In this document: positions 22,378 to 40,967 of the stretch, one piece after another
Layout: each line of letters begins with the position of its first letter
Numbering within the stretch: the first letter of the stretch is position 1
DNA from: Lachnospiraceae bacterium 62-26
GTDB taxonomy: Bacteria > Bacillota > Clostridia > Lachnospirales > Lachnospiraceae
Assembly (NCBI GenBank): GCA_041223685.1
Contig: JBCLQR010000015.1
Strand: one strand, 5' to 3'
DNA: 64,000 nt
Position numbers and translations under genes: made by a program
Notes under the pieces: model-generated
What the model was told of the DNA's origin: nothing
The model's input: the letters and a program-made list of their open reading frames with translations, nothing else
Database searches by the model: none

Positions 22378-22400
22378 GGATGAAAGGCGGGGAGGATCTG

Positions 22401-25748: not shown

Positions 25749-26691
25749 ATGGGAATCTTAAATTATGCCGGCAGGAGCTTAAGAACTGTGACGGCAATTA
25801 TGCTTGGGTTATGTGTGATATCGGGATGTGCACGCAGAGAGAGCGCGGAATCTGAGGAAGAGCCGTATACGATTGGCGTGGTTACGAAGTCCAGAGACAG
25901 TGAGTATTGGATGTCTGTGTTCGGGAATGGAGAAGGCGGCCGGAGATTACAGAGTGTCTGTCAGGATCATTTCCCCGGATTCAGAGTCCAATGACAAGAT
26001 GCAGAAGAAGATGATCCATGATCTGATACAACAGAACGTGGATGCCCTGGCGATCTCCCCGATCTCTTCTTATGACGCCCCCTATCTAGAAGAGGCAGAA
26101 GAAGAGGGGATAAGAGTGGTTGCATACGATACGAAGATCATGGCGGACGGGATACCGTACATAGGGATAGATAACCGCAAGGCGGGGGAAGAGCTTGCCG
26201 CAGATATGGCAGGACGGCTTTCGAACTGTGGAAAGGTAGGGATTGTTGCGGGTGATCTGAGGCAGACAGCGCATTCAGAACGAGTGGAGGGTATCCTCTC
26301 CTACATAGAGAAGAATACGGACATTGAGATTGCGTTTGTCGAGAGCGGGTATGCGAATCTTCTGATTTCGGATGCGGAGATATCAAGGATATTCTCAGAG
26401 CATCCGGATATTGACGGGATATTTGCCACCAGCGGGGTTACGGCCCTTGGGATCCGGCAGTATCTGGGAGAGTCTCCGGTACTTGTGATGACGGTGGACG
26501 CCCAGCAGGATGCGCTGACTGCGGTCGCAAGCGGGAAGCTTGCCGCGCTGGCTGCGCAGTCCGGATATGAGATCGGATACGAGACGGTCCGCTTTATCGC
26601 CGAGAACAGGGAGAATGACGATGGCATATTGGAAGACAGGATATTAGACGCAGATATTTTGACAAAAGACAATATAGATGAGTGGCAGTAA
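25749..26691 (+). pseudogene. Frameshifted lipoprotein-type periplasmic sugar-binding protein (PBP1, RbsB/LacI-type), sensor partner of the downstream kinase
   Basis: Frame 0 (25749..25994) encodes lipobox LGLCVISGC and domain start TIGVVTKSRDSEYWMSV; the domain continues in the +1 frame (SGMEKAAGDYRVSVRIISPDS.. to 26691); junction in the TCTGTGTTCGGG run near 25917-25923. Confidence 0.6.
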
Positions 26692-26714
26692 ATAAGTACC
26701 TAAGGAGACAGGGT

Positions 26715-28526
26715 ATGTTCCATAGTATGAGAAGTAAGATGATCCTGGCAATGCTTGTGGTGACAGGCTGTGCGGTAGTTCTGGTTACCGCGATGTTCTA
26801 TCAGAGATCTGCCGGGATGATAGAAGAGGATTACGTGGAGAACCTCTATGGCAGGCTCCGTCAGATGGGCGATGCGCTGGACGAATCCTTAAAGGAGATC
26901 TATTTTCTCACGGTACAGGCTTCCTGTGATGAGAAGATTCTTGCAGGAACGGAAGCTTATCTTTCTGAGGGTGAGGAACAGAACCTGACGGAGCTTGCAA
27001 AGATGCTTCGGGATTATTCCGGAAGACACAGCGAGGCAGGGTGCTTCTATCTGGTGATTCCTGAAAAACGGATGATCGTGACGTCTCTGGAGTATCCGGT
27101 ATATCACAAGGAGATATCGGAGGAGAAGCTTGATGAGATTGAGAAGACGGGGACGGCCTCCCTTACACCGGCGCTTATCAAAGATCCGCTGAGGGAACAG
27201 GATCATATCCTGGTATTTGTAAGCCCGGTGGAGGCGGATAACGGCGGGATATGTGCTTATGTTATGAGTTGCCTGAAAGAACGGACGCTGTATTATAATT
27301 ACCTTGATAATCTGGAAGGCGGAGAAACCTCGAGGGCGGCGCTTCTGGATGAGAATGGAAGGATCGTATCAGCGAAGCGTCTGGAACATGTGGGCATGTA
27401 TTATCCGGCAGAGCAGGAGCAGGGTTATGCCGGGACGCAGAAGGACCGTGAGGGACAAAAAAGCAAGGACGGCCGGGATATGATCTTCGTACAGTATCGG
27501 GCTGATTTCTCCGGATATTCGTTTCTGCTGGAGCGGGAGAAGAATGAAGTGTTAGCCGACTTAAGAGAGATACGCTCTTATCTGGCAGTGATTCTCCTGG
27601 CGGTCCTTGGATGTGTGGCGGTTCTGATGGTTGTGATCACGAAAGCCATGTATCAGCCCTTAAAGCGCCTGACAGAGACGATGGGGCAGGTAAGCAGGGG
27701 CGGACTGGAATGTCGTGTGGAAGTGACGACAAAGGATGAGATCGGCCTCCTGTCCGGTGAATTCAATGATATGCTGGACCATATTGAAGATCTGATCGGC
27801 CGGCTTTTGCAGGAGGAAATGCTGAAAAAAGATGCGGAGCTTGAGGCGCTTCAGTATCAGATCACGCCTCATTTCATGTACAATACACTGAATTCCATCA
27901 AGTATGCCGCGCTGTTAAAGGGCGAGGATGAGATTGGCGGTCTGCTTGAGGATTTTATAGAGCTTCTTCAGGCAAGTATCAATAAGAAGGGAAAGTTCGT
28001 TACTGTTGCGGAGGAGATCCATTTTCTTAAGAACTACATGAACTTGTAGCGTATGCGCTATGAAGAGGAAATCGTGGTTGATTACCAGATACAGCAGGAG
28101 GCTTATGCCTGTTTCCTTCCAAGGCTGATGCTCCAGCCGCTTGTGGAGAATGCGATCCTGCACGGGCTTGATCTGAGAGGCAAAAGGAACAGGATCGTGA
28201 TCGGCGGAGACGTAGAGGAGGGCCGGCTAAAGCTGTGGGTACAGGATTACGGCAGAGGAATGTCACAGGAGCAGATAGCGCGTCTCTTACAGGAGACGCA
28301 CAAGAAGGAGAAGGGGCTGTCCGGAATCGGCGTGGCGAATGTGAAGGAACGTCTGCGGCTGTATTATGGTGACGCCGGGCATGTGACGTGTGTAAGCAGT
28401 GACGCAGGTACGAAGATCTGTATGTACCTGCCTGCATACAGGGAGCAGAACCAGTATGCACTGTATGGGTTTGATATGCAGAAGGAAAAGGAGCAAGGAT
28501 ATGATCAGAACGGTGATTGTGGATGA
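26715..28526 (+). pseudogene. YesM-like sensor histidine kinase interrupted by an in-frame TAG
   Basis: N part (to 28049) has 2 TM + HAMP + His_kinase signature LQYQITPHFMYNTLNSI; TAG at 28047-28049; same frame continues RMRYEEE.. with HATPase_c (LQPLVENAILHGL, DYGRGM, GLSGIGVANVKERL) to 28526; a CAG codon at the stop position would give the family-typical ..NLQRMRY.. Confidence 0.6.
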
Positions 28527-30147
28527 TGATTTCCTGGTGCGCAGTTATCTGAGACAGCTTAAAGCGTGGGAACGGGCGGATTATCAGATCGTGGCCGATG
28601 CAAGGGACGGCGAGGAGGCGCTTACGGCTGTGGAGGAGCTGGGGCCTCAGGTGGTGATCACGGATATTTCCATGCCTTTGATGGACGGTATCGAGCTGAT
28701 TAGAAGAATACGGGAGACAAATCGTACCGTATATATTATCGTACTCAGCTGTCACGATGACTTTGAATATGTGAGAGAGGCCATGAAGCTTGGAGCCGAT
28801 GAATATGTACTGAAGAATTCACTGAATGAAGACAGCCTGTATGAGATGCTGGTCCATACGGCCGGACAGCTTAAGGACAGGAGGGCGCAGTTTCAGGAAA
28901 ATGATGAGACAAAGCGGTTGGTGGAGATGGGAAGGCAATCGCTGAAATATCATTTCTTCAACGGACTGCTTGCGGGCAGTTTAACCGCTAAGGAGCGGGA
29001 GAAGAGAAGGAAAGAGGCAGGGATCCATGCGAAATATACCAACAGTGCGGTGATCAATCTGTTCATACCTTCCTGGGGGATGCTGAAATATCAGTACAGC
29101 GGACTGGAGCTGGAGCAGTACGGACAGAGATTCTTACGAAAGCTGATCAGAGGGCTGGAACGCAGGGCAGAGGATATCTCTCTTGAAGCTTCGAACGGGA
29201 CAAGAGAGATACGGGGGAGGGATTCGCCCGGGAAAGAGATGGAATGCGTGGAATGTGTATATCTGGGAGAAGGGGTTTTCTGCTGTTTCCTGGATATGTC
29301 GGGACTGTATCGGGACAGCCTGATGAGGCAGAAGCTGACGAGCGCCGCCACGGCGTGCTATCGCTGTTGTAAAGATGAGGAGCATACTTTTTTTGTAGGC
29401 GTGAGCGGTATCTGCTTTGGAGAAGAGGGAATCCGTCAGGCATATCAACAGGCAAGAGAGATGCTGAGGCTTGGCTTTTATGAGGACGCCGGGATCCTGT
29501 ATTATGAGGATTGTCCGGGGATCGGAAGGGTTCTGCCGGGGGAGGCTCAGGAGCTTCTGGATCATGCGGCGGATTATGTGGAATGCCGGCCGTATGAGGA
29601 CATGAGAGCGGAATTTGAGAAGGTATCGTCGGTTTTTTGTAAGGAGCATACAGATCCCCGTCTGATCCTGCACTGGCTCAGGGAGCTGGATCAGCGGCTG
29701 AAGGTTGAACGGCCGCAGGAGGAGTATGCCGGGATCATCAAGATCGAACAGCTTATGTCTGCGTGTGACGCCTACAAGCCGAAGTGGTTTCTGTTGCAGA
29801 AAAAACCGCTGCCAAAGGAAGTAAGCTCGGCTGTGCGCCGGGTGGTGGAGTATCTCCATACCCATTATAAGGAACCGATCGGGCTTGCGGATGCGGCAGA
29901 GACGGCGGGACTGAATCCGGCATATTTAAGCTTCCTGTTCAAGCAGGAGCTGGGAACGGGGTTTTCCTCCTACCTCCTTGATCTGAGAATGGAGTGCGCC
30001 AGGGCTTTGCTTCGGGGCACGAATGAAAAGATAAAGGAGGTGGCAAGAGAAGCAGGATTCAACGACTATCATTATTTTTCCAAGGCATTCAAGAAGATCA
30101 ACGGATGCAGTCCGGTGGATTACCGGAAGAATCATATTAAGGTCTAA
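28501..30147 (+). CDS. YesN-like two-component response regulator with AraC-type DNA-binding domain
   Basis: Start ATG 28501 (MIRTVIVDDD, RBS AAGGAGCAAGG) overlapping the kinase 3' end; REC domain with DISMPLMDG; C-terminal AraC HTH (..GFSSYLLDLRMECARALL..FNDYHYFSKAFKK). Confidence 0.85.
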   Translation: MIRTVIVDDDFLVRSYLRQLKAWERADYQIVADARDGEEALTAVEELGPQVVITDISMPLMDGIELIRRIRETNRTVYIIVLSCHDDFEYVREAMKLGADEYVLKNSLNEDSLYEMLVHTAGQLKDRRAQFQENDETKRLVEMGRQSLKYHFFNGLLAGSLTAKEREKRRKEAGIHAKYTNSAVINLFIPSWGMLKYQYSGLELEQYGQRFLRKLIRGLERRAEDISLEASNGTREIRGRDSPGKEMECVECVYLGEGVFCCFLDMSGLYRDSLMRQKLTSAATACYRCCKDEEHTFFVGVSGICFGEEGIRQAYQQAREMLRLGFYEDAGILYYEDCPGIGRVLPGEAQELLDHAADYVECRPYEDMRAEFEKVSSVFCKEHTDPRLILHWLRELDQRLKVERPQEEYAGIIKIEQLMSACDAYKPKWFLLQKKPLPKEVSSAVRRVVEYLHTHYKEPIGLADAAETAGLNPAYLSFLFKQELGTGFSSYLLDLRMECARALLRGTNEKIKEVAREAGFNDYHYFSKAFKKINGCSPVDYRKNHIKV

Positions 30148-30288
30148 AGAAAAGACAACTTTTATCTGACCAGAAAGCAACAAACCTAAAATAATTACAG
30201 TTTTTTTAGACCTGCGGGTATGGTATATTTTTTATAGAAAAGCAAGAGAAGAGAAGAAGAGTGGATATAGAGAAAGGAGAGTCAAGAG

Positions 30289-31188
30289 ATGTTTGACAAG
30301 AACAAAGTAAAACTTGGAATTGCGCCCATTGCATGGACGAACGACGATCTGCCGGATCTGGGAGGAGAGAACACATTTGAGCAGTGTGTCAGTGAGATGG
30401 CGCTGGCCGGATTTACGGGATCGGAGGTAGGAAACAAGTATCCTAAGGATCCGGAAGTCCTGAGGAAGGCTTTGGAGCTTAGAGGGATTGAGATCTGTAA
30501 TCAGTGGTTCTCCTCTTTCCTGATCACGAAGCCGTTTGAAGAGGTGGAGAAGGAGTTCCGTGCACAGCTTACATTCTTAAAGGCCATGGGAGCGAAGATC
30601 ATCGGCGCTTCTGAGCAGAGCCACAGTGTGCAGGGACAGCAGGATACGCCGATCTTCGGGCATAAGTATGTGATGAACGACGAAGAGTGGAAGACCTTCT
30701 GCGACGGCATGAACCGTCTTGGCAAGATTGCGAAGGAGGAGTACGGGATTGCCCTTACCTTCCATCATCATATGGGAACCGTGGTACAGAACCCGGATGA
30801 GGTGGAGCGCATGATGGAGAACACGGATCCGGAATATGTAAGCCTGCTGTTTGATACGGGGCATTTTACATACTGCGGGGCTGATCCGCTTGAGATGGTG
30901 ACCAAGTATGTGGACAGGATCAAGCATGTCCACCTGAAGGATATCCGTCCGGAGGTAGTAGAGAAGGTCAAAGCAGAGAACTTAAGCTTCCTTGAAGGTG
31001 TAAGGATGGGAACCTTTACGGTGCCGGGAGACGGATGCATTGATTTTGATCCTATTTTCAAGGTTCTTGAGGATCACAATTATGAAGGATATATGCTGGT
31101 AGAGGCGGAGCAGGATCCGGCGAAGGCGAATCCGTTAGAGTATGCCGTTAAGGCAAGGAAGTTTATCGCAGAGAAGACAGGGCTTTAA
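30289..31188 (+). CDS. iolE: IolE-like (myo-inosose-2 dehydratase family) xylose-isomerase-like TIM-barrel protein, paralog 1
   Basis: 299 aa; N-terminal [37 protein letters not shown] and internal [15 protein letters not shown] motifs typical of the IolE family. Confidence 0.75.
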
Positions 31189-31212
31189 ACCAGAGAAGAC
31201 AGGGCTTTAAAC
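31169..31212 (+). repeat. Perfect 22-bp tandem duplication spanning the iolE-like stop codon
   Basis: CAGAGAAGACAGGGCTTTAAAC at 31169-31190 repeated exactly at 31191-31212. Confidence 0.8.
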
Positions 31213-31274
31213 CGGCGCGGAAAGATTGCCGGTAAGTGATACAGTCACATAAACAGGAAGGAGATAAGAAGATT

Positions 31275-32288
31275 ATGGTTACAGTAGGTATTATCGGAGC
31301 AGGAAGAATCGGAAGAGTTCACGTGGAGAGCATTTGTACAAAGGTGGGCAATGCAAAGATCAAGGCCCTTGCGGATCCGTTCATGAACGAGGAGACAGAA
31401 CTCTGGGCAAAGAAGATGGGTGTGGAGAAGACGACGAAGGATTACAAGGAGATCCTTGCAGATCCTGAGATCGATGCAGTGCTGATCTGTTCCTCCACAG
31501 ATACACATTCACCAATCTCTGTAGAGGCGATCCAGGCAGGAAAGCATGTATTCTGCGAGAAGCCGATCGACCATGATGTGGCGAAGATCAAGGAGGTTAT
31601 AACTGCGCTTGAGAAGAACCAGGTGAAATACCAGGTAGGCTTCAACCGCAGATTCGACCACAACTTTGAGGCGGTAAGAGATGCGGTGGCGGCAGGCAGG
31701 ATCGGAGATACACATATCATCAAGATCACATCCAGAGATCCGGAGCCGCCGTGTGCAGACTATGTGAAGGTATCAGGCGGAATGTTCCTGGATATGACCA
31801 TCCATGATTTCGATATGGTGCGTTTCCTTGCAGGATGCAATGCAACAGAGGTTTATGTAGAGGCAGCGGTCCTTGTGGATCCGGCGATCGGAGAAGCAGG
31901 AGACGTAGATACGGCAGTGATCACGCTCAAGATGGAGAACGGCGCGATCGCAGTTATTGATAATTCAAGACAGGCCGTATATGGATACGACCAGAGAGCG
32001 GAAGTATTTGGCTCTAAGGGAATGGTGGCAACGGGAAATGACACTGCAAGTGCCGCAGTGATCAGTAACGTGGACGGCGTGACTGGAGAGAAGCCGCTTC
32101 ACTTCTTCCTGGAGCGTTATATGGATGCATATGCGAAGGAGATTAAGTGCTTTATCGAGGCAATCGAGAATGATTCTGAAACTCCTCTTGGAGTGGAGGA
32201 CGGATTGCAGCCGGTACTGATGGGACTTGCGGCGAAGAAGTCCTTGGAGGAGCATCGTCCGGTGAAGATCTCTGAGATCAGCGCGTAA
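31275..32288 (+). CDS. Gfo/Idh/MocA family NAD-dependent inositol dehydrogenase paralog (IolX/IolW-like)
   Basis: Start ATG 31275 (MVTVGIIGAGRIGRVH, RBS AAGGAGATAAGAAG); Rossmann GxGxxG, conserved EKP motif (VFCEKPI) and GFNRRFD. Confidence 0.8.
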   Translation: MVTVGIIGAGRIGRVHVESICTKVGNAKIKALADPFMNEETELWAKKMGVEKTTKDYKEILADPEIDAVLICSSTDTHSPISVEAIQAGKHVFCEKPIDHDVAKIKEVITALEKNQVKYQVGFNRRFDHNFEAVRDAVAAGRIGDTHIIKITSRDPEPPCADYVKVSGGMFLDMTIHDFDMVRFLAGCNATEVYVEAAVLVDPAIGEAGDVDTAVITLKMENGAIAVIDNSRQAVYGYDQRAEVFGSKGMVATGNDTASAAVISNVDGVTGEKPLHFFLERYMDAYAKEIKCFIEAIENDSETPLGVEDGLQPVLMGLAAKKSLEEHRPVKISEISA

Positions 32289-32377
32289 TCCGAGTGAGCA
32301 GTAGTTTTCTCGTTAATTTTCACACCCTTCGCCGATCACACAGCTGATTGAGTGGAGCCGATATAAGATACACATCC

Positions 32378-32425
32378 AACGGGACTGCCCCTGGCCGAAG
32401 ACGGCTTTTAACGGGCAGTCCCGTT
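32378..32425 (+). terminator. Long hairpin after the dehydrogenase gene (possible terminator or attenuator)
   Basis: 13-bp stem AACGGGACTGCCC / GGGCAGTCCCGTT with 22-nt loop, followed by only a weak T tract (TATAATTCTC). Confidence 0.35.
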
Positions 32426-32575
32426 TATAATTCTCAACTGCATAGAATAAAAGCTATATAGAATCCGGCGGGGATTTGCTTCTATTTTTATAAGGTGATA
32501 TAATAGACCTTGACTTTCGGGAGACACTACATCAGAAGGATATGTGCAGTCTGCCCGCAGCAGGGAGGGAAGGAT

Positions 32576-33604
32576 ATGGCAGTAACCTTACAACAGATCG
32601 CAGAAGCGGCCGGAGTCTCCAGAGGAACGGTAGACCGGGCTTTGAACAATAGAGGAAGAATCAATGCGGAGGTGGCGGACAGGATCCGGAGAATCGCAGA
32701 TGAGATGGGATATCAGCCCAACCGGGCGGGCAGGGCGCTGGCGATGTCGAAACGGTCGATCACCATAGGCGTGCTTATCCAGGCGGCGGAGACGCCGTTT
32801 ATGGAGAATGTCATTGAGGGCGCAGAGGATGCCAAGGCAGAGGTAGAGCGTCTCGGCGCGGATGTGATCATCCGCAGGATGGAGGATTTTGATGCCGGGA
32901 AGGCGGTTGAGGCGATGTATGAGCTTAAGAAGGCGGGATGCAACGGGATCGCCATGATCCCGGTGGACGACGGGGAGCTTAAGGAGACGGTCAACAGATT
33001 CGCCGATGAGAATATACCGGTGATCACGTTTAACTCGGATATCGAAGAGTCGAAGAGGCTCTGCTTTGTGGGGCAGGATACTTACCAGAGCGGAAGAGTG
33101 GCGGCGGGCCTGATGGCCGATATTCTCCCGGCAGACGGGAAGGTACTTGTCATATCAGGATATCCGACCAGTTACGGACATAAGAACCGGACAAAAGGAT
33201 TTCTTGGAGAATTTGCGGCGCTCAGGGAGGATGTCCGGGTACTGGATGTACAGTATGATTTTGACGACGACCATATGGCGGAGATGATCACGAGGGGAAT
33301 GCTTAAGGAGTACGAGGATCTGTCCGGCATCTATCTTGCGGCGTCCGGGGTAGAGGGTGTGTGTAAGGCGCTTAAGGATTTTGGCATGGAAGAGAAGGTG
33401 AAGGTGATCTCTAATGACCTGACTGCCCGGAACGTGCAGTATCTTAGGGAGGGGAAGATCCGCTTCCTGATCGGGCAGGACGGTTACCGCCAGGGGTATG
33501 AGCCGGTCATGCTGTTATTTGAGAAGATTTTTGACGGCAAAGAACCAGAGAAAGAATATGCCTACACGGAGATTGTGATCAAGACCAGGTATAATCTTGT
33601 ATAG
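32576..33604 (+). CDS. LacI family transcriptional regulator
   Basis: Start ATG 32576 (MAVTLQQIAEAAGVSRGTVDRALNN, RBS GGGAGGGAAGGA); N-terminal HTH plus periplasmic-binding-protein-like sugar-binding core. Confidence 0.85.
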   Translation: MAVTLQQIAEAAGVSRGTVDRALNNRGRINAEVADRIRRIADEMGYQPNRAGRALAMSKRSITIGVLIQAAETPFMENVIEGAEDAKAEVERLGADVIIRRMEDFDAGKAVEAMYELKKAGCNGIAMIPVDDGELKETVNRFADENIPVITFNSDIEESKRLCFVGQDTYQSGRVAAGLMADILPADGKVLVISGYPTSYGHKNRTKGFLGEFAALREDVRVLDVQYDFDDDHMAEMITRGMLKEYEDLSGIYLAASGVEGVCKALKDFGMEEKVKVISNDLTARNVQYLREGKIRFLIGQDGYRQGYEPVMLLFEKIFDGKEPEKEYAYTEIVIKTRYNLV

Positions 33605-33648
33605 ACATAATGAATAAAAATGTTTTGTGAAAATTGTGTAAAATGCCA

Positions 33649-33670
33649 ATTGCGTTCACGTGAACGCAAT
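33649..33670. promoter_or_regulatory. 22-bp perfect palindrome ATTGCGTTCACGTGAACGCAAT, candidate LacI-type operator upstream of the iolG-like gene
   Basis: Perfect inverted repeat about 70 nt upstream of the 33740 start; same 18-bp core recurs at 34776-34793. Confidence 0.5.
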
Positions 33671-33739
33671 GATAAAATAACAACATAAAGAAACAAAGTC
33701 ATGAGAAACATATAAAAAGCAGGAAAGGTGGAAAACAAA

Positions 33740-34744
33740 ATGTTAAGAGTAGGAGTTATCGGTTGCGGCGGAATGGGAAGAGACCATATCAGGAGGATCA
33801 CAGAGAGGATTCAGGGAGCTGAGGTTGTGGCAGTATCAGATGTATTTGAAGAGGGTGCGAAGAAGGCGGCAGAGATTGCCGGAGGAGCCAGGGTATATAC
33901 GGACGGCAAAGCACTGATCAATGATCCGGAGGTTGACGCGGTTCTGATTGTTTCACCCGGATTTGCGCATGTAGAGGATCTTCTTGAGGCAATTAAGGCC
34001 GGCAAGCGAGTATTCTGCGAGAAACCGCTCTGTACAACAGCGGAGGACTGCAAGAAGGTTATGGACGCGGAAGAGGCATCCGGCAGGCATCTGATCCAGT
34101 TAGGATTCATGCGCCGTTACCACAAGGGATACAACCAGATCAAGGATGCGATTGCCACAGGAGAGTACGGCGAACCGCTGATGATGCACTGTACGCACAG
34201 GAATCCTGAGGTGGGGACAAATTACAACACGCCGATGGCAGTACATGATACCGTGATCCATGAGATTGATCTCTGCCACTGGCTGGTAGATGATGATTAT
34301 GAGAGCGTACAGGTGATCATGCCGAAGGTTACCAAGTACTCACATTCAGAGCTTAAGGATCCTCAGATCATGCTGATGCGCACGAAGAGCGGTATCTGCA
34401 TTGACGTAGAGTGCTTCGTGAACTGCAAGTTTGGCTATGATATCAACTGCGAGGTTGTATGTGAGGACGGCGCTCTTAAGATGGGAGCTCCGATGGCTCC
34501 GTCTATCCGTAAGAATGCGGCGGCTTCTACAGAGATCACGACAGACTGCTTCGTACTGTTCAAGGATGCATATGACGCGGAGATCCAGAACTGGGTAGAT
34601 TGTGCAAAGAAGGATGTGATTGAAGGGCCGACCACGTGGGACGGATATCTGGCGGCAGTTACAGCGGATGCGCTGGTGAAGGCTCAGGAAACGGGGAATA
34701 TCGAGAAGGTTGTAACGGTTGAGAAGCCGGAATTTTATAAGTAA
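33740..34744 (+). CDS. iolG: myo-inositol 2-dehydrogenase-like (IolG-type) Gfo/Idh/MocA oxidoreductase
   Basis: Start ATG 33740 (MLRVGVIGCGGMGRDH; the track start 33728 is a GTG); VFCEKPLCTTAEDC, QLGFMRRYH, GEPLMMHCTHRNP resemble the B. subtilis IolG pattern. Confidence 0.8.
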   Translation: MLRVGVIGCGGMGRDHIRRITERIQGAEVVAVSDVFEEGAKKAAEIAGGARVYTDGKALINDPEVDAVLIVSPGFAHVEDLLEAIKAGKRVFCEKPLCTTAEDCKKVMDAEEASGRHLIQLGFMRRYHKGYNQIKDAIATGEYGEPLMMHCTHRNPEVGTNYNTPMAVHDTVIHEIDLCHWLVDDDYESVQVIMPKVTKYSHSELKDPQIMLMRTKSGICIDVECFVNCKFGYDINCEVVCEDGALKMGAPMAPSIRKNAAASTEITTDCFVLFKDAYDAEIQNWVDCAKKDVIEGPTTWDGYLAAVTADALVKAQETGNIEKVVTVEKPEFYK

Positions 34745-34775
34745 TACTAAGGCAGGAGATTATTTTTTCAGGCAA

Positions 34776-34793
34776 TGCGTTCACGTGAACGCA
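34776..34793. promoter_or_regulatory. 18-bp palindrome TGCGTTCACGTGAACGCA, second copy of the candidate operator
   Basis: Identical core to the 33649-33670 site, about 40 nt upstream of the 34832 start. Confidence 0.5.
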
Positions 34794-34831
34794 AATGAAC
34801 CCGGAGGGAAAAACGAAAGGAGACGACGATC

Positions 34832-35665
34832 ATGAAATTAGGATTTAACGAGGCAACAGCGCTGGAGTGTAAAGGGCAGTCCCTGCTTGCAGATATGGAG
34901 GCATGTGAGAAGTATGGTTTTGATTATATAGAGATTAGATTTGACTGTGTAAAGGATTATCTGAAGGAGCATACGTTAGAGGACCTGGCAGACTGGTTTA
35001 AGAATCATCATCTGAAGCCGTGGGCGTATAACACGCTGATTTTCTTTAACCAGAGAGATGAAGCGGGTGTGAAGGAGATTGATGAGGAGACCGATTTTAT
35101 CATCGAGGTATGCAGGGCGATCGGGATGAAGATGCTGATCACGGTTCCGCAGTTTGATGTAAAGGATAAGAGCGTGTCCGAGATTAAGGAGGAGGCTGTG
35201 GAAAGACTTCGCTATCTGTCCGACAAGGTTGGCTCTGACATCAGGATTTCCCTGGAGTTCTGCGGCGCTCCTAACTGTTCCATCAATCAGTTTGGGACGG
35301 CGTATGACGTAGTGAAAGCGGTAGACAGAGAGAATGTGGGAATTACGGTTGATACCTTCCATTTCCATGAGATGTGTTCTAAGATCGAGGATCTTAAGAA
35401 GGCTGACGGCAGAAAGATTTTCGCATATCACCTGAATGACTGCGAGGATCTGCCTCTTGGTTCCTGCGGCGATGACAAGAGACTGTGGCCGGAAGAGGGT
35501 GTGGTCGATCATGCGGCGATTGCCGGCGCGCTGAAGGAGATTGGATTCGACGGAGTGTGCACGATAGAGGAATTCCGTCCGGAGTATTATGCAATGTCTC
35601 ATGAGGAGAATGTGAAGAAGGCGGCAGAGGTAACGAAGGCATTTGTAGAGAAATATTTCGGCTAA
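34832..35665 (+). CDS. Sugar phosphate isomerase/epimerase, xylose-isomerase-like TIM barrel (IolI/inosose-isomerase-like)
   Basis: 277 aa; AP-endonuclease-2/xylose-isomerase TIM-barrel pattern (..DYIEIRFD.., ..VDTFHFHE.., ..YHLNDCED..). Confidence 0.75.
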   Translation: MKLGFNEATALECKGQSLLADMEACEKYGFDYIEIRFDCVKDYLKEHTLEDLADWFKNHHLKPWAYNTLIFFNQRDEAGVKEIDEETDFIIEVCRAIGMKMLITVPQFDVKDKSVSEIKEEAVERLRYLSDKVGSDIRISLEFCGAPNCSINQFGTAYDVVKAVDRENVGITVDTFHFHEMCSKIEDLKKADGRKIFAYHLNDCEDLPLGSCGDDKRLWPEEGVVDHAAIAGALKEIGFDGVCTIEEFRPEYYAMSHEENVKKAAEVTKAFVEKYFG

Positions 35666-35702
35666 ATGGATTGGGCAGTGCGGGCTGGAAGGAGCAGAAG
35701 AG

Positions 35703-36599
35703 ATGTTAGATAAGAATAAAGTTTCACTTGGTATAGCGCCGATCGGATGGACGAACGACGATATGCCGGACCTGGGGAAAGAGAATACATTTGAACAGAC
35801 GGTAAGCGAGATGGCGCTTGCAGGATTTACGGGATCAGAGGTGGGCAGCCATTATCCTGCGGATCCGGCAGTGCTAAAGAAAGCGCTGGATCTGAGAGGA
35901 ATGACGATCTGTAATCAGTGGTTTTCTTCTTTCCTGATCAGCAGACCGTATGAAGAGACGGAGGAAGCATTTATTAAGCAGTGCGATTTTCTGAAAAAGG
36001 TGGGTGCAAGGTGCATCGGCGTGTCCGAGCAGAGCTTCAGCATCCAGGGAATGACGGACCATCCGATCCAGGAGGGCAAATATGTCATGAATGATGAGGA
36101 GTGGGATCTGCTTACGGGGGGCCTCAACAGGCTTGGAAGGATTGCGAAGGAGAAAGGAATGGTACTTACCTTCCATCATCATATGGGAACGGTTGTGCAG
36201 ACGGAGGAGGAGATAGACCGGTTCATGGCATCTGTGGATCCCGAACTTGTATTCTTGTTGTTTGACAGCGGACACTTGTCGTTTGCAGGGATAGATCCGG
36301 AGAAGGTGCTGAGAAAATATGTGGACCGTGTGCGTCATGTCCACCTGAAAGATCTGAGGAAGCGTGTTGTGGAACAGTCGCGCAATGAGAAATGGAGTTT
36401 CCTGAAAGGAGTGCGCGAGGGAACGTTTACCGTGCCCGGCGACGGGGATGTGGATTTTGCACCGATTTTTAAGATCCTTGAAGAGGCTGATTACAGAGGA
36501 TGGGTAGTGGTAGAGGCGGAGCAGGATCCGGCGAAGGCAAACCCGCTTGAGTACGCTCTTAAGGCAAGAAAGTATATTGCAAAGCATACGGGCTTATAG
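35703..36599 (+). CDS. iolE: IolE-like (myo-inosose-2 dehydratase family) TIM-barrel protein, paralog 2
   Basis: 298 aa; same family motifs as 30289..31188 ([37 protein letters not shown]; LTFHHHMGT; HVHLKD). Confidence 0.75.
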   Translation: MLDKNKVSLGIAPIGWTNDDMPDLGKENTFEQTVSEMALAGFTGSEVGSHYPADPAVLKKALDLRGMTICNQWFSSFLISRPYEETEEAFIKQCDFLKKVGARCIGVSEQSFSIQGMTDHPIQEGKYVMNDEEWDLLTGGLNRLGRIAKEKGMVLTFHHHMGTVVQTEEEIDRFMASVDPELVFLLFDSGHLSFAGIDPEKVLRKYVDRVRHVHLKDLRKRVVEQSRNEKWSFLKGVREGTFTVPGDGDVDFAPIFKILEEADYRGWVVVEAEQDPAKANPLEYALKARKYIAKHTGL

Positions 36600-36641
36600 G
36601 ATAAATTTTAAAAATCCAAAAACAGGAAAGGAGTGTAAGAA

Positions 36642-37541
36642 ATGAAGATAGCATTCGATGTAGATGTATTGGCGAAGCAGATGGGTATTAATGATATGGT
36701 TCATCAGGTTGCGGACTGGGGTTACAAATATATTGAGCAGTCCCCGCACCCGCGTATCAACCCGTTCTACAAGCATCCGTTGTTTTCTAAAGAGTGTGAG
36801 GCGGAGTATAGAAAGGCTCTTCGCGAGACAGGTGTGGAGATCTCCTCTTTTATCGTTGTATACCGCTGGTCCGGTCCGACAGAGGAGCAGCGGCAGATGG
36901 CGGTGGCAAACTGGAAGCGGATGGTTGAGATTGCAGTAGATATGGGAGTACAGGTGATCAACACGGAGCTTTCCGGCGACCCCAATCAGCAGGAAATCTG
37001 CAATGGTATGTGGTTCCGCTCTATGGATGAACTGCTGCCGTTGTTTGAGAAGGAAGGGATCCGTGTAGAGATACAGTCACATCCGTGGGATTTCTGCGAG
37101 TTGAATAATGAGACCTGCGATATGGTGAAGAGTTATCGTTCCGATAATCTGAAATATGTATATTCTTCCCCGCACGGTTTCTTCTACGACAAGGGCGCGG
37201 GCGATGTCCGTTCGATGCTCAAGTACGCGGGCGATGATCTGAGCCATGTATTATTTGCAGATACGTACAACCAGACCAAGGATTGCAGATATATCCTGAA
37301 TCCGCCGTGGCTTAACAGTATGGGAAGAGAAGATGTTTCCATTCATCAGCATAATCCGATGGGAGAAGGGGATGTGGATTTTGACGGGATCTTCGAGACG
37401 CTGAGAGAGATGGATTTTGCAAACAGACAGTTTAAAGCAGGCGGAGACGCAATCTCCTGTGTATCTATCTTCGGATATCCGGAGCGCATGGCGGTTGAAG
37501 CTCCAAAGGCAAGAGAGATCATTGAGCGTGAATTATTATGA
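36642..37541 (+). CDS. Sugar phosphate isomerase/epimerase family TIM-barrel protein
   Basis: 299 aa; xylose-isomerase-like fold pattern; stop overlaps the next gene start (ATGA at 37538-37541). Confidence 0.7.
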   Translation: MKIAFDVDVLAKQMGINDMVHQVADWGYKYIEQSPHPRINPFYKHPLFSKECEAEYRKALRETGVEISSFIVVYRWSGPTEEQRQMAVANWKRMVEIAVDMGVQVINTELSGDPNQQEICNGMWFRSMDELLPLFEKEGIRVEIQSHPWDFCELNNETCDMVKSYRSDNLKYVYSSPHGFFYDKGAGDVRSMLKYAGDDLSHVLFADTYNQTKDCRYILNPPWLNSMGREDVSIHQHNPMGEGDVDFDGIFETLREMDFANRQFKAGGDAISCVSIFGYPERMAVEAPKAREIIERELL

Positions 37542-39661
37542 AATCAGCGGCGGAATTACTGAATTATAAACAAAAGAATAAAGATATGGATGAGTTCATC
37601 AGGGTGCCCGTGTCTGAAAAGCTGGCGTACTGCTTCGGCGATCCGGCTTTGACGCTGATGTATACGATGACAACCACACTTCTGATCTACTTCTATACCA
37701 ATGTGGTTGGTATTTCGGCAGGATCGGTCGGAATGATCATGCTGGTGTCCCGCGTGTTCGACGGCTTCTCGGATGTGTTGATGGGAACCATTATAGACCG
37801 GACTCATTCCAAATACGGGAAATCCAGAATATGGATCTTACGGCTGGCGGTTCCTTATGCGTTAGCGGCAATTATCCTTTTTACGATGCCGGGCATGGGG
37901 CCGAAGGGGAAGATTGTATATGCGTTTGTGACTTATAATATCATGAATACGGTTGTATATACGGCGATCAGCCAGCCGTTCCATGCTCTGGGATCCCTGA
38001 TGAGCCGTGACAGGAGAGAGCGCGATGTAATCTGTAATATCCGTATGGTACTGTCCATTACGGCGAGCATGGTCATCACGGCATTCACGCTTCCGCTGAT
38101 CAATAAGACTGCGGGCATCATCCATCATGAACAGGCGGCGTGGATCCTCGTTACGGCTGTGTATGCCGTCATCTCAGTGTTCGTACTGCTGAACACCTAT
38201 GCGACATGTACCGAGCGTGTACAGACAGCCCAGAAGAGCAAGGAGGATATCCCGTTCTGGATGGCGCTTAAGGCTACGGTGACGAATCCGTATTTCCTGA
38301 TCGCGCTGGGGCTGATGCTGTTCTATACGGTGTATCAGATCATTATAGGGACGGATCTTACATATTATTGTCAGTATGTATTGAATGATGTGGATCTGGT
38401 CATGCCGTTGTCGGCTTCCGAGAAGATTGCAACTATCATCGGAATCGCCCTGCTTCCGAAGCTTCTTCCCAAATTCGGAAAACGAAATCTGATCTGTGCG
38501 GGATGTATTCTTGGCGTTGCCGGGCAGCTCATCTTCCTGATGAATGTTACAAGCGTTCCGTTAGGAGTTGTTACGTGTATTATGAGGGGATTCGGAATCG
38601 CCCCATTCTATGGTGTACAATATTCGCTGCCAAGTGATGCCATTGAATATGGCCAATGGAAGACAGGGCTTAGGATCGAGGGGCTGATGTTCTCATCCAT
38701 GAGCATGGGGCAGAAGGCCGGTTCGGGATTCACGTCTGCTATTATGGGTGCAATCCTCTCTATGGCGGCATTCGACGGACTGAAAGCGACGGCGGCTGAA
38801 CAGACAGCAGAAGCGATTGCGGTGATCAAAGGGTTCTATCTCTATGTACCGATCGCAATCTGGATGATTATGTTCCTGATTGCTCTGTGCTATAAGCTTG
38901 ATAAGAAATATGACCAGATGATGCGGGATCTGATCGCGCGGGAAAGCAAAGCGGAGCATACGGAAAGCGGGCGTGATGATACAGAGCTTATCGGGCAGAA
39001 TGATCACTTAAGCAGATTTAACGCAGACAACCAGGCCGTTGATTGGAAGCAGGGGCAGATTAATATCGCGATCGGGCGGCTCTATGGGGCAAGTGGAAGA
39101 AAGATTGCGGAAGCACTTGCAAAGGAGCTTGGATGCCGGGTGTATGACCGGCAGATCATCTGTATGCTGGGCGAGAAATTCGGAATGGAGACAACGGATA
39201 TCGAGAAGCTTAAGCGGTATCTGGATTCCTATAATGAAGGACGGCAGGTAACGTTCTCCCCTTATTCCATGCCGGGCGCCGGGGTTGCGGAGGATATTAT
39301 AGACACGCAGGTATTTGAAGAGCAGAGCCGGCTGATCATGAAGCTTGCGAAGACGGCGCCGGGAGTCTTCCTCGGACGTTGTGCGAACTTCTTATTGGCG
39401 GAGCTTCCTCACACCTATTCCTTCTTCATCTATGCGGATGATGAATACAGGGAAAGAGAAGGACGGGAATATTACCAGGGACAGACGCTTGAGAAGCTGA
39501 AAGAGCGTGATGAGAAGAGGAGTGAATATTATCTGCGGTACACCGGCACGAAGCGGGACGATCCAGGATGCTATGATATGGTCATCAACGTAAGCAGGAC
39601 GGGCGTTGCCGGCGCGGTGCAGGTGATTATGGATTATATTAAGAAGAAAGAGGAAGAATAG
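37538..39661 (+). CDS. GPH-family sugar:cation symporter fused to a C-terminal cytidylate-kinase-like (Cytidylate_kin2) P-loop domain
   Basis: 707 aa single ORF; residues 1-470 are a 12-TM MelB-like transporter (..YTNVVGISAGSVGMIMLVSRVFDGFSDVLMG..RTHSKYGKSRIWIL); residues 515-707 (INIAIGRLYGASGRKIAEALAKELGCRVYDRQII..) match the standalone cytidylate-kinase-like family. Confidence 0.7.
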   Translation: MKSAAELLNYKQKNKDMDEFIRVPVSEKLAYCFGDPALTLMYTMTTTLLIYFYTNVVGISAGSVGMIMLVSRVFDGFSDVLMGTIIDRTHSKYGKSRIWILRLAVPYALAAIILFTMPGMGPKGKIVYAFVTYNIMNTVVYTAISQPFHALGSLMSRDRRERDVICNIRMVLSITASMVITAFTLPLINKTAGIIHHEQAAWILVTAVYAVISVFVLLNTYATCTERVQTAQKSKEDIPFWMALKATVTNPYFLIALGLMLFYTVYQIIIGTDLTYYCQYVLNDVDLVMPLSASEKIATIIGIALLPKLLPKFGKRNLICAGCILGVAGQLIFLMNVTSVPLGVVTCIMRGFGIAPFYGVQYSLPSDAIEYGQWKTGLRIEGLMFSSMSMGQKAGSGFTSAIMGAILSMAAFDGLKATAAEQTAEAIAVIKGFYLYVPIAIWMIMFLIALCYKLDKKYDQMMRDLIARESKAEHTESGRDDTELIGQNDHLSRFNADNQAVDWKQGQINIAIGRLYGASGRKIAEALAKELGCRVYDRQIICMLGEKFGMETTDIEKLKRYLDSYNEGRQVTFSPYSMPGAGVAEDIIDTQVFEEQSRLIMKLAKTAPGVFLGRCANFLLAELPHTYSFFIYADDEYREREGREYYQGQTLEKLKERDEKRSEYYLRYTGTKRDDPGCYDMVINVSRTGVAGAVQVIMDYIKKKEEE

Positions 39662-39677
39662 CTGATAAAAATCCGAT

Positions 39678-39734
39678 ATTGCGTATGTATAGCTTCCGCG
39701 GGGGTTAGACCGCCAGAGCTTTTACATACGCAAT
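39678..39734. terminator. Long-loop hairpin between convergent genes (possible bidirectional terminator)
   Basis: 12-bp stem ATTGCGTATGTA (39678-39689) / TACATACGCAAT (39723-39734) enclosing a GC-rich 33-nt loop. Confidence 0.35.
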
Positions 39735-39761
39735 CTCGAAAAAGTTCAGAATGGAACATGA

Positions 39762-40967
39762 TCATGCCTGCGGTTGTATATCGGAGGCATATCTGTCATA
39801 GTATAGTGATGATTCATCTTCAGTGAGACCAAAATGTTTTTGCAGTTTCATAAGGATTCTTCCCTTGGGGATCTGCTCGTCCAGGTTGTCTAGAATTAAT
39901 GCCTGTATGCCTTCTTCTTTGGCAATCCTGGCTTGTGCTTTAGCGTCCATAGCTTCTTTTTTAATAATTTCAGATTCCTTTTTAATAATTTCAGCTTCTT
40001 CCATAACAATTTCGGCTTCTTTTCTGGCGATTTCAGCCTTTTCTTTAACAATTTCAGCTTCTTTTCTGGCGATTTCAGCTTCCGCTTTAATAGCCTCAAC
40101 TTCTTTCTGGACAGATTTTAGAGCATCATCCCGAACTCCTGCGTGTACGACCTGCTCCAGGCTGCTCATCTGCGTAACCTCCCTCCACAATTCCGCATTG
40201 GCAGAGAAATCGATATATTCTGTTACTGTTGACATAAAGTCCTCTTTATGCGGATACATAATTGCATTCAGGAAACGAAAAAGGTCATATCCATCGTCTT
40301 CCTTACCCCCATTATACACCTCATTGCCTAATTTGATAACTACTAATGTCATCAGATCGTAGTTTTCTCTGGCCACGGAGCCGGGCGAGGTATTCCTGGT
40401 GTTGGTCGTCTCGTAAACGGAAATACTATAGCAGTCCTTCTTTGGGATATCATCCCGGCAGATAAAGATGCTGTAGCATTTGGAGAGAAGGTTGTAATCC
40501 GTGCCTTCATAGGCCAGTGACAGCTGGGAGGACAAACGGCGTGCAAGATAGTAAAATCCCCGCTTTTCAATCGGGTAACCTGGTTTATACGTCTTCTGCG
40601 GTTCCAGATCGATATGCAGGTTGATCTGGATATCTTCTGTAGAGAGCTGGGGATTCCGGGCCTGAAAGGCCAGATCAAAGTTAGTTGTTTTCTCATTGAG
40701 ATGAATGAATTCGGTGTTGCCGCAGCTGACTTTGGTGTTACTCCTTCCCGGCGATACTTCCGTGGTGTTGGTAATGGAATCCGGAACAATAAATTCTTGT
40801 ACTTCCTTTAAACTATATCCTTTGTATTCTGAGACGGTTCCTTTCAAGATAACTGCCAGCACCTCCAAGTGGCGCAGGATTGTTTTGCTTGGAGCGTCCT
40901 TACCGGCCGTGTCTGCGGTAGTCTGCAAAGCGCTAAGGGCAGCAATGCTTCCCTGAAGCTTATCCAT
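39762..40967 (-). CDS. Rpn family recombination-promoting nuclease/putative transposase (PD-(D/E)XK, YhgA-like)
   Basis: 401 aa; N-terminal nuclease-like region, central acidic heptad-like repeats (KEAEIARKEAEIVKEKAEIARKEAEIV), C-terminal ..LILDNLDEQIPKGRILMKLQKHFGL.. tail as in Rpn/Transposase_31 proteins. Confidence 0.6.
   Translation of the reverse strand: MDKLQGSIAALSALQTTADTAGKDAPSKTILRHLEVLAVILKGTVSEYKGYSLKEVQEFIVPDSITNTTEVSPGRSNTKVSCGNTEFIHLNEKTTNFDLAFQARNPQLSTEDIQINLHIDLEPQKTYKPGYPIEKRGFYYLARRLSSQLSLAYEGTDYNLLSKCYSIFICRDDIPKKDCYSISVYETTNTRNTSPGSVARENYDLMTLVVIKLGNEVYNGGKEDDGYDLFRFLNAIMYPHKEDFMSTVTEYIDFSANAELWREVTQMSSLEQVVHAGVRDDALKSVQKEVEAIKAEAEIARKEAEIVKEKAEIARKEAEIVMEEAEIIKKESEIIKKEAMDAKAQARIAKEEGIQALILDNLDEQIPKGRILMKLQKHFGLTEDESSLYYDRYASDIQPQA
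40007..40090. repeat. Two tandem 42-bp units (plus degenerate flanking copies) inside the Rpn-like gene
   Basis: CAATTTC(G/A)GCTTCTTTTCTGGCGATTTCAGC.. repeated at 40007-40048 and 40049-40090; encodes the EAEIxRKEAEI peptide repeats. Confidence 0.7.

Follow-up and report, generated by a model that had tools for sequence, protein, structure and literature searches.

The window, a 64-kb stretch of DNA from Lachnospiraceae bacterium 62-26, carries eight genes on the plus strand between positions 30289 and 39661, all of them present as the earlier note had placed them. An alpha-galactosidase gene, a transporter gene and a sugar sensor lie upstream. The features are as follows:

20110-22377, plus strand: GH36 alpha-galactosidase, upstream of the cluster
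24164-25546, plus strand: GPH transporter, upstream of the cluster
25749-30147, plus strand: three-component sugar sensor (binding protein, kinase, AraC regulator)
26715-28526: His_kinase-type kinase gene of the sensor, with TAG at 28047-28049
28501-30147: Response_reg/AraC regulator gene of the sensor, intact
30289-31188, plus strand: iolE1 (A), myo-inosose-2 dehydratase, opening the two-gene unit iolE1-idh
31275-32288, plus strand: idh (B), inositol 2-dehydrogenase of the TIGR04380 (IolG/IdhA) family
32378-32425, plus strand: hairpin, then UUUAUAAUU, downstream of B
32573-33604, plus strand: LacI-family regulator, HTH and Peripla_BP_4 sensor domain
33650-33669: predicted operator O1, perfect 20-bp palindrome TTGCGTTCACGTGAACGCAA
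33740-34744, plus strand: iolG (D), B. subtilis-type myo-inositol 2-dehydrogenase/D-chiro-inositol dehydrogenase
34775-34794: predicted operator O2, second copy of the palindrome with one mismatch, between D and E
34832-35665, plus strand: iolI (E), putative inosose isomerase (2-keto-myo-inositol to and from 1-keto-D-chiro-inositol)
35703-36599, plus strand: iolE2 (F), myo-inosose-2 dehydratase, inside the repressor-controlled operon
36642-37541, plus strand: G, IolH-type xylose-isomerase-like TIM barrel
37538-39661, plus strand: H, GPH-family (MFS_2) cation symporter with a C-terminal cytidylate-kinase-like domain
39674-39738: long hairpin between convergent genes, downstream of H

Both IolE proteins scored well above the cut-off of 290 bits for myo-inosose-2 dehydratase (TIGR04379), with 428 bits for A and 414 bits for F, and A matched the IolE structure 3CNY in the PDB (E 3e-83). 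As a Bacillus-type reference we used the PGAP-annotated operon of a Peribacillus plasmid (NZ_CP133765; order iolA-B-C-D-E-porter-iolG-[IolH position]-iolI-fba), to whose IolE A and F are 46 and 50% identical, respectively. The N-terminal motif quoted previously was found in both proteins. The genes had been described as duplicated; two copies are indeed present, but they are old paralogues and not the result of a recent duplication, because they are only 67% identical and each has its own orthologues in relatives. Those of A are 89-97% identical; those of F, with 78-95% identity, occupy the equivalent position in loci of Blautia, Anaerostipes and Dorea. The omega value of A was 0.03-0.04, and purifying selection was strong on every enzyme of the cluster (0.01-0.04).

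The two dehydrogenases share only 29% identity. B reached 477 bits against TIGR04380 (inositol 2-dehydrogenase; cut-off 355), and its matches in the PDB were led by the Thermotoga maritima dehydrogenase 3EZY (E 1e-104), presumably TM0414, and included the inositol 2-dehydrogenase 4HKT (E 4e-85). The assignment of B to the inositol dehydrogenases was thus correct, while its narrower IolX-like label found no support. D matched 3MZ0 over its full length (E 7e-119), kept the Lys97, Asp172 and His176 positions in that comparison, and was the reciprocal best hit of the gene at the IolG position of the Peribacillus operon (56% identical). This agrees with its earlier description as IolG-like, though its 468 bits against NF052679 (B. 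subtilis-type IolG) fall under the cut-off of 540.

E and G are both AP_endonuc_2 TIM barrels according to Pfam. The former aligned with B. subtilis IolI (PDB 1I60) over residues 1-276 of 277 (E 6e-84) and was the reciprocal best hit of the PGAP-annotated iolI in the Peribacillus operon (46% identical). G scored 130 bits against AP_endonuc_2, matched no equivalog among the NCBIfam models and no PDB sequence, and gave generic fold matches only in the structural comparison with Foldseek. Its homologues carry the JGI/KEGG label "IolH", and it was the reciprocal best hit of the IolH-position gene in the same iolABCDEFGHIJ-type operon (40% identical). Accordingly, these are not two extra isomerases, as had been proposed, but an IolI orthologue and an IolH-type protein, both members of the classical Bacillus iolABCDEFGHIJ set. 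G is extremely conserved, its homologues in Vibrio, Megasphaera and Flexilinea being 82-86% identical.

The end of G and the start of H share 4 nt. H exceeded the GPH model (TIGR00792, 312 bits; cut-off 231) and consists of an MFS_2 domain (residues 31-456) and a Cytidylate_kin2 domain (509-686), and this architecture of about 700 aa recurs in 23 related loci. The classical substrates of GPH transporters are glycosides and not free polyols.

The regulator at 32573-33604 contains the Pfam domains LacI and Peripla_BP_4 and is preceded by a promoter-like TTGCTT-17-TATAAT. Of the 80 related loci, 39 have its counterpart next to D. O1 abuts TGATAAAAT, an extended -10 upstream of D. Zero chance matches to this palindrome were expected from shuffled sequences, and in 14 loci from other species, other genera included, its 16-bp core is kept ahead of the D homologue. 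O2 is present in four loci (L001-L003 and L006). Presumably, the LacI-family repressor binds the two 20-bp palindromes. The hairpin at 32378-32425 (-32.9 kcal/mol, z = -6.0) was matched in stability by 0 of 200 shuffles in RNA folding and is a probable terminator of the iolE1-idh unit, and that at 39674-39738 (-37.3 kcal/mol, z = -5.05) probably marks the end of the D-H operon. The predicted transcription units are iolE1-idh, the LacI-family gene alone, and iolG-iolI-iolE2-iolH-transporter, the last of which would be both preceded and interrupted by the palindromes. For iolE1-idh, the regulation is guesswork, because the searches found no operator upstream of it and no motif that it shares with the sensor.

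The lesions of the sensor were called against four contigs from other strains of the species in which it is intact (L002, L004, L005, and L006; Pfam-labelled alleles of 314, 603, and 548 aa). A 2-bp deletion near 25915 shifts the frame of the binding-protein gene, and a C to T change at 28047 turns CAG into TAG in the kinase gene. The sensor had been reported as degraded; this holds for the binding protein and the kinase, but the AraC-type regulator is intact. The regulator gene precedes iolE-idh in the relatives L007, L010, L012, and L015. The two pairs of IolE and dehydrogenase genes are old paralogues that are probably regulated differently: one lies behind the sensor, which is inactivated in this strain, and the other in the repressor-controlled operon.

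As stated in the earlier note, iolD, iolB, iolC, iolJ and iolA are missing from the 64-kb window: none was found among the Pfam labels of contigs with exactly matching proteins, and tblastn of the window with the iolC, iolD, iolB, iolA, iolJ and Fe-ADH proteins gave a best E of 1.5. The window proteins are exact matches to those of the isolate Lachnospiraceae bacterium 62-26 (MEY8411656, ...674, ...682, ...685, ...688, and ...689), for which the FeoB, GH36 and H accessions are named. A second locus, with the order iolC-iolD-iolB-iolA-GntR-opp-amidohydrolases-FeADH-MFS-aldolase (IolJ-type), is very likely part of the same genome, because of the accession numbering, the single organism name and the co-occurrence in three metagenomes. 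Its IolD (P0214) is MEY8412737.1, numbered 1,049 after G. The contigs with this IolD carry PfkB-TPP-KduI-Aldedh, corresponding to iolC-D-B-A, and overlap (99.1-99.7%) a contig that continues into FeADH, MFS and a class II aldolase, of which the variant P0297 is named by NCBI for strain 62-26. Window-type and lower-pathway contigs occur together in assemblies ERZ27269636, ERZ17962527, and ERZ28595594, and the GC content of the latter was 48.2-49.2% compared to 48.6% in the window. The earlier interpretation as a non-canonical route therefore fails, since the canonical genes are very probably encoded elsewhere in the genome of 62-26; the link to inositol and the gene identifications behind it were borne out by the curated models and PDB matches.

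We consider it likely that the region provides the uptake and the upper part of a conventional inositol (iol) regulon split over two loci, which makes the cluster a routine split pathway and no new inositol route. With the chemistry taken from characterised orthologues, the GPH-type symporter H would import the cyclitol, and IolG and/or the TIGR04380 dehydrogenase would oxidize myo-inositol to scyllo-inosose (2-keto-myo-inositol), which D-chiro-inositol could reach via IolG and IolI. IolE would then dehydrate scyllo-inosose to 3D-(3,5/4)-trihydroxycyclohexane-1,2-dione, the putative substrate of IolD, IolB, IolC, the IolJ-type aldolase and IolA, all supplied by the second locus.

A self-contained route that bypasses IolD, either of the Thermotoga type (taken here as IolG, a second oxidation, the hydrolase IolN and the epimerase IolO) or through a new IolH-type ring opening, would suit a window without iolD, iolB, iolC, iolJ and iolA and the closeness of B to 3EZY. 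It would also suit the minimal modules, such as those on Pantoea plasmids, in which G is accompanied by a regulator, a TIM barrel and a Gfo oxidoreductase and the stretch examined contained no iolD. This route is very unlikely. Every TIM barrel stayed at or below 35 bits against the IolO model (cut-off 300), so that the Thermotoga-type reading of the earlier note is not supported, and the window lacks a Zn-ADH-type second oxidoreductase, a kinase and uronate genes. Moreover, there are two genuine IolE dehydratases, whose product requires IolD. A canonical iolC-D-B-A...iolJ locus has been linked to this organism, and in many relatives iolD adjoins the module. The likewise proposed oxidation and elimination of unusual C-/O-glycosides (DgpA/DgpBC-, BT2157-2159- or levoglucosan-type) would make the Gfo/Idh/MocA proteins sugar 3-dehydrogenases and the TIM barrels lyases. 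The enzyme families fit, H belongs to the glycoside-pentoside-hexuronide family, and DgpB-C and DfgA-B are among the fold neighbours of G; yet the latter likeness is generic (TM 0.62, 13% identity, ranked under ketose epimerases). The glycoside, disaccharide and levoglucosan dehydrogenase models gave 50-86 bits (cut-offs 650-750), compared to 468-477 bits for the inositol dehydrogenase matches, and DgpA about 80 bits versus 400 for B. subtilis IolG. With E being IolI and A and F above the IolE cut-off, this proposal is extremely improbable.

The region might also be part of a larger island for galactosides of cyclitols (galactinol, fagopyritols, galactopinitols), in which the glycoside is taken up by the GPH transporters and cleaved by GH36, and the freed myo- or D-chiro-inositol is consumed through the iol genes. 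This would add to the split regulon and not exclude it. The genes for GH36, a GPH transporter and the sensor immediately precede the cluster in the same orientation, both transporters belong to the glycoside-type GPH family, IolG and IolI together would handle both inositols, and the GH36/sensor/iolE1-idh segment varies between strains as a block, being missing from L118 and L122. We regard such an island as rather improbable, since adjacency is its sole basis, a GH36 gene paired with a GPH transporter is a standard unit for melibiose/raffinose, and in related loci the D-E-G module is found together with both GPH types. In addition, Anaerostipes rhamnosivorans, whose cluster is alike in gene content, grows on free myo-inositol.

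Taken together, the two loci contain every enzyme type of the B. subtilis-type iolABCDEFGHIJ, which forms one operon there. The second locus is 45% (IolC), 50% (IolD), 45% (IolA), 39% (IolJ-type aldolase), and 26% (IolB) identical to the Peribacillus operon and additionally has Fe-ADH and an MFS transporter. Further differences are the two IolE genes, the additional TIGR04380-type dehydrogenase, the GPH (MFS_2) protein with its cytidylate-kinase-like tail in place of the sugar porter IolF/IolT, and the LacI-family regulator; the B. subtilis iol regulator is the DeoR-type IolR. The T. maritima pathway, reportedly from work of Rodionova et al. in 2013, is said to be IolG-IolM-IolN-IolO. It resembles the window in the affinity of B and in dehydrogenases accompanied by TIM-barrel proteins, but IolO and IolM-type or kinase genes are absent from the window, whereas true IolE dehydratases are present and a canonical IolD locus is linked to 62-26. 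With DgpA/DgpB-C, BT2157-2159 and LgdA, the likeness is at the level of the two shared superfamilies and the GPH-type transporter, the specific models being far under their cut-offs.

The gut Lachnospiraceae A. rhamnosivorans likewise has iol genes over several clusters and multiple iolG and iolE copies, a comparison with the window made by gene content alone. Its IolJ (1054), IolG (1057), inosose isomerase (1058), and transporter (1059) are clustered away from iolCDB (1104-1106). On myo-inositol, the first three of these proteins are either abundant or induced, and the strain can also use chiro-inositol (Bui et al., 2021, PMC8355322). In the A. hominis locus L047, the order is MFS, aldolase, R, D, E, GPH, iolE, G. 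Compared with Anaerostipes, the window has no aldolase beside the module, and an additional iolE1-idh pair and the sugar sensor stand ahead of it. In seven relatives (L014, L020, L029, L047, L053, L078, and L082), the module directly abuts iolC/iolD/iolB/FeADH/iolJ.

The eight open reading frames described in the earlier note were all found, on the plus strand, and their identities were assigned as follows.

Genes of the cluster and the matches that identify them
30289-31188, +, iolE1, myo-inosose-2 dehydratase (TIGR04379, 428 bits, cut-off 290)
31275-32288, +, idh, inositol 2-dehydrogenase of the TIGR04380 family (477 bits, cut-off 355)
32573-33604, +, regulator with LacI HTH and Peripla_BP_4 domains (Pfam)
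33740-34744, +, iolG, close relative of B. subtilis IolG (PDB 3MZ0, E 7e-119; NF052679, 468 bits, under the cut-off of 540)
34832-35665, +, iolI, xylose-isomerase-like TIM barrel, inosose isomerase IolI (PDB 1I60)
35703-36599, +, iolE2, myo-inosose-2 dehydratase (TIGR04379, 414 bits, cut-off 290)
36642-37541, +, IolH-type gene, xylose-isomerase-like TIM barrel (Pfam; match in the Peribacillus operon)
37538-39661, +, GPH symporter with a C-terminal Cytidylate_kin2 domain (TIGR00792, 312 bits, cut-off 231, residues 28-467)

The IolE assignment was also tested against the PDB, where 3CNY was matched at E 3e-83. Comparison of IolG with 3MZ0 revealed that the positions of Lys97, Asp172 and His176, which we take to be the catalytic triad, are kept. 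The earlier note had counted two extra TIM-barrel isomerases in this cluster. Both are present, but the first is IolI rather than an unknown isomerase, as it matched B. subtilis IolI (PDB 1I60) over its full length at E 6e-84. The proteins were further compared with the operon of a Peribacillus plasmid (iolA-iolB-iolC-iolD-iolE-porter-Gfo-[isomerase]-iolI-fba). Reciprocal best hits were obtained between IolG and the product of the gene in the IolG position (56% identical), between IolI and the annotated IolI (46%), between IolE2 and IolE1 and the Peribacillus IolE (50 and 46%, respectively), and between the IolH-type protein and the product of the gene between iolG and iolI (40% identical, E 1e-79). 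The comparison with IolH was made through the position in this operon and the JGI label of the homologues, which is 'IolH'. Measured against relatives at dS 0.7-1.9, every enzyme had an omega of 0.01-0.04, a sign of strong purifying selection. Together, the profile and reciprocal-best-hit identities indicate that the window carries uptake and the upper half of the classical iol gene set: as predicted from sequence, its content is iolG, iolH, iolI, two copies of iolE, a second dehydrogenase, a regulator and a transporter. IolE, IolG, IolI and the IolH-type TIM barrel of the Bacillus-type pathway were all found in the window, whereas IolD, IolB, IolC, IolJ and IolA are not in its cluster.

The lack of iolD, iolB, iolC, iolJ and iolA in the 64-kb window, which the earlier note had reported, was borne out by Pfam labels and tblastn alike. 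No TPP enzyme, KduI/IolB, PfkB, class II aldolase or aldehyde dehydrogenase was labelled by Pfam in the 64 kb, with genes called on contigs that carry the same genes. Every tblastn match of IolC, IolD, IolB, IolJ and IolA proteins to the window had E > 1, and no IolD match fell on window-type contigs. The claim of a non-canonical route without a lower pathway had to be given up, since a canonical iolC-iolD-iolB-iolA...Fe-ADH-MFS-aldolase locus was linked to the organism, a finding that the earlier note itself had named as evidence against its proposal.

This linkage was drawn from several sources. Exact look-ups of the window proteins gave the record MEY8411656 for FeoB at the window start and, in the MEY84116 series, those ending in 674 (GH36), 682 (IolE1), 685 (IolG), 688 (IolH-type protein) and 689 (transporter); the FeoB, GH36 and transporter records are named Lachnospiraceae bacterium 62-26. 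The IolD protein variant P0214, drawn from IolD proteins about 92% identical to that of a relative, is MEY8412737.1, which lies 1,049 accession numbers after the IolH-type protein. On its contigs, PfkB-TPP-KduI-Aldedh precede GntR and an opp transporter. Another contig, which overlaps these at 99.1-99.7% over 5.8 kb, extends past two amidohydrolases as far as Fe-ADH, MFS and a class II aldolase. A variant of this aldolase, in the same gene arrangement, is named by NCBI for strain 62-26. Moreover, window-type and lower-pathway contigs occur together in three assemblies (ERZ27269636, ERZ17962527, and ERZ28595594), and the GC content of the lower-pathway contigs agrees with that of the window. 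The IolB of the second locus is a weak match, with a KduI/IolB Pfam domain and 26% identity to Peribacillus IolB. Because of the accession numbering, the strain name on the aldolase and the co-occurrence in three assemblies, the second locus very probably belongs to the organism of the window; the linkage is indirect and consistent on every count. With both IolA (Aldedh) and the Fe-ADH/MFS pair at this locus, malonic semialdehyde may have two fates.

The commonest IolD variants, P0130 and P0128, belong to a related 'Dorea sp.' with 85-88% nucleotide identity to the relevant locus, and were discarded as evidence for the window's genome because no sample or MAG contains them together with the window. 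The second locus was observed in two forms (L106-L110, L125-L127, L134, and L136, contigs of the same species). In one, iolC-iolD-iolB-iolA is followed by GntR, the opp transporter and two amidohydrolases before Fe-ADH-MFS-aldolase, while a few small ORFs replace the GntR/opp/amidohydrolase segment in the other.

Two other chemistries had been proposed for the cluster. A Thermotoga-type inositol route has as its sole link the best PDB hit of the idh product, the T. maritima dehydrogenase 3EZY, and this match simply reflects the TIGR04380 family. The IolO model NF041099, with a cut-off of 300 bits, gave 30.5 bits for IolE1, 35 for IolI, 28.8 for IolE2 and 18.6 for the IolH-type protein, so that none of the four TIM barrels exceeded 35 bits. 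Furthermore, no second oxidoreductase of another family (IolM), hydrolase (IolN), kinase or uronate genes were found in the window among the Pfam families of the called genes, and the Thermotoga-type route was judged very unlikely. The other proposal, a system that oxidises and then eliminates on glycosides, was contradicted by the dehydrogenases. The models of BT_2158, BT_2159 and levoglucosan dehydrogenase scored 50-86 bits, far below their cut-offs of 650-750, and DgpA (7XR9) gave about 80 bits, compared to 400 bits for IolG. The predicted structure of the IolH-type protein would resemble DgpB-C at the fold level only.

A pathway split over the genome has precedents. Anaerostipes rhamnosivorans has its iol genes in several separate clusters, with IolJ (1054), IolG (1057), an inosose isomerase (1058) and a transporter (1059) together and iolCDB at 1104-1106 (PMC8355322). 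The genome holds 11 copies of iolG and 4 of iolE, myo-inositol induces the pathway proteins, and the strain also uses chiro-inositol (PMC8355322). Anaerostipes hominis carries the same module as the window (L047), and studies of Dysosmobacter and of hen and pig gut communities describe the canonical IolG/IolE/IolD route with its upper pathway. The scattered clusters of A. rhamnosivorans, the A. hominis locus and the gut studies therefore show that a split iol arrangement is normal in these bacteria. The window locus is the ordinary upper module of a split canonical iol pathway in an uncharacterised gut Lachnospiraceae isolate, which adds one further mouse- or animal-gut member of the family, with iol genes split as in Anaerostipes, to the known inositol fermenters. 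Clostridia that carry iolG and iolE with iolD/B/C/J/A 'missing' nearby usually have a split regulon and not a new pathway, and the importance of the locus is small beyond correct annotation. Two points were brought into view: a very highly conserved IolH-type protein and the accompanying GPH transporter with a kinase-like tail.

The IolH-type protein was used as a query, which gave 80 loci from GTDB species representatives, and the ORFs of these loci were clustered. The loci closest to the window had just 80-88% DNA identity. The protein is 82-86% identical among Lachnospiraceae, Vibrio, Megasphaera and Flexilinea, and Halioxenophilus also belongs to this cross-phylum set. Its gene has a Gfo/Idh/MocA dehydrogenase, a further TIM barrel and a GPH transporter as neighbours in most of the 80 loci, and the recurrent module is regulator-iolG-iolI-[transporter]-[iolE]-iolH. 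The full module directly adjoins iolC, iolD, iolB, Fe-ADH and an iolJ-type class II aldolase (NCBIfam) in L014, L020, L029, L047, L053, L078, and L082. The same lower-pathway neighbours are present in L044, L059, and L083, but there the IolH-type gene stands alone or within a rearranged gene set. Other modules consist of AraC, a divergent IolE-like TIM barrel, a 390-aa Gfo oxidoreductase and the IolH-type gene, or, on Pantoea plasmids, of LacI, a TIM barrel, a Gfo oxidoreductase and the IolH-type gene. These minimal modules have no other iol gene nearby, and GPH transporters are often alongside. Some genomes hold two copies, such as A. hominis (L047/L050) and Blautia celeris (L039/L055).

The IolH-type protein has no sequence relative in the PDB and no NCBIfam equivalog, and no function was found in the literature on IolH; we know of no reaction for B. 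subtilis IolH. Its AlphaFold model (pLDDT 74) matched ketose 3-epimerases, UlaE, DgpB-C and IolI at the fold level in a Foldseek search against the PDB (TM 0.6-0.7, 11-17% identity). A function was not taken from the fold, as the generic ketose-3-epimerase/UlaE-like match (TM about 0.69) gives no functional assignment. The transporter is of the glycoside-type GPH family, with Cytidylate_kin2 at residues 509-686, C-terminal to the MFS_2 part, and its NCBI name, 'cytidylate kinase family protein', is due to this domain. Of the 80 loci, 23 have this conserved MFS_2-Cytidylate_kin2 fusion of roughly 700 aa adjoining iolG-iolI-iolH. The IolH-type protein may catalyse an essential, as yet uncharacterised reaction of its own, such as the epimerisation or isomerisation of keto-cyclitols, which would open further inositol isomers or derivatives to catabolism, and the kinase-like fusion may add a regulatory or phosphorylating function; as a pair, these proposals are rather unlikely. 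The upstream GH36 alpha-galactosidase hints at a possible use of cyclitol galactosides.

The cluster is divided by two long hairpins, which were found by folding, while a consensus terminator scan missed both. The first (32378-32425; -32.9 kcal/mol, z -6.0) lies 3' of iolE1-idh and is followed by a U-rich tract, and the second (39674-39738; -37.3 kcal/mol) ends the run from iolG to the transporter. A separate promoter-like TTGCTT-17-TATAAT precedes the regulator gene. At 33650-33669, the perfect 20-bp palindrome TTGCGTTCACGTGAACGCAA abuts an extended -10 upstream of iolG, and a second copy with one mismatch lies between iolG and iolI at 34775-34794; zero copies were expected by chance. In 14 loci of other species, Blautia and Intestinibacillus among them, the 16-bp core of the palindrome is kept upstream of iolG homologues. 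The regulator is thus predicted to be a LacI-family repressor with a candidate palindromic operator at its target promoter. The spacings from iolG to the transporter gene are 87, 37, 42, and -4 nt. The hairpins, the promoter-like sequence of the regulator gene, the palindromes and these short spacings thus define three units: the pair iolE1-idh, the regulator gene by itself, and iolG-iolI-iolE2-iolH-transporter. Upstream of iolE1 no copy of the operator was found, and a comparison of the promoter regions of the GH36, first GPH, sensor and iolE1 genes gave no convincing shared regulatory motif.

Two IolE genes and two Idh genes are present, as the earlier note had described, but they are not a recent tandem duplication, since IolE1 and IolE2 are 67% and the two dehydrogenases 29% identical. 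Orthologues of IolE1 (89-97% identical) lie 3' of an AraC-type regulator or of an iolD-iolB-FeADH-MFS block, and those of IolE2 (78-95% identical) lie between iolI or the transporter and the IolH-type gene in Dorea-, Blautia- and Anaerostipes-type loci. L118 and L122, which encode an identical IolH-type protein and so come from this species or one very close to it, lack the sensor and iolE1-idh, have ABC-transporter genes in that place, and keep the genes from the regulator to the transporter. The separate IolE orthologues and these two loci indicate that the window holds two juxtaposed modules.

The adjacent sugar sensor was confirmed to be degraded in this strain. Over 25400-30288 the window is identical to contig ERZ27269636:k119_40419. 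Compared with four contigs of other strains in which the sensor genes are intact (L002, L004, L005, and L006), a 2-bp deletion near 25915 frameshifts the binding-protein gene, and a C to T change at 28047 turns CAG into TAG (28047-28049) in the histidine-kinase gene. The response regulator is intact in the window. In L001, the binding-protein gene is split differently and the kinase gene is intact. The decay of the sensor and the presence or absence of iolE1-idh among strains represent an ongoing modular turnover of the locus.

Other differences among strains were also observed. In L120, with an identical IolH-type protein, iolE2 is split into 192 and 122 aa, and in L005, likewise from this species or one very close to it, the IolH-type gene is split into 56 and 214 aa. 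An AAA_35 / AAA-ATPase_like gene of 543 aa (22380-24011) lies between the GH36 and GPH genes in the window. It is present in L001 and L003 and absent in L002 and L004-L006, and a diverged paralogue (65-80% nucleotide identity) lies upstream of iolC in the lower-pathway locus of L106, so these genes look like a mobile or variable family. On the minus strand, an ORF of 401 aa without a Pfam hit (39762-40967), with C-terminal near-repeats (KEAEIARKEAEIV...), converges on the end of the iol operon; its length is 387-401 aa among strains, and it is split in L005. Over the window (1-64000), the GC skew is strongly positive for the most part and the majority of genes are on the plus strand, which fits a region on the leading strand of a Bacillota chromosome.
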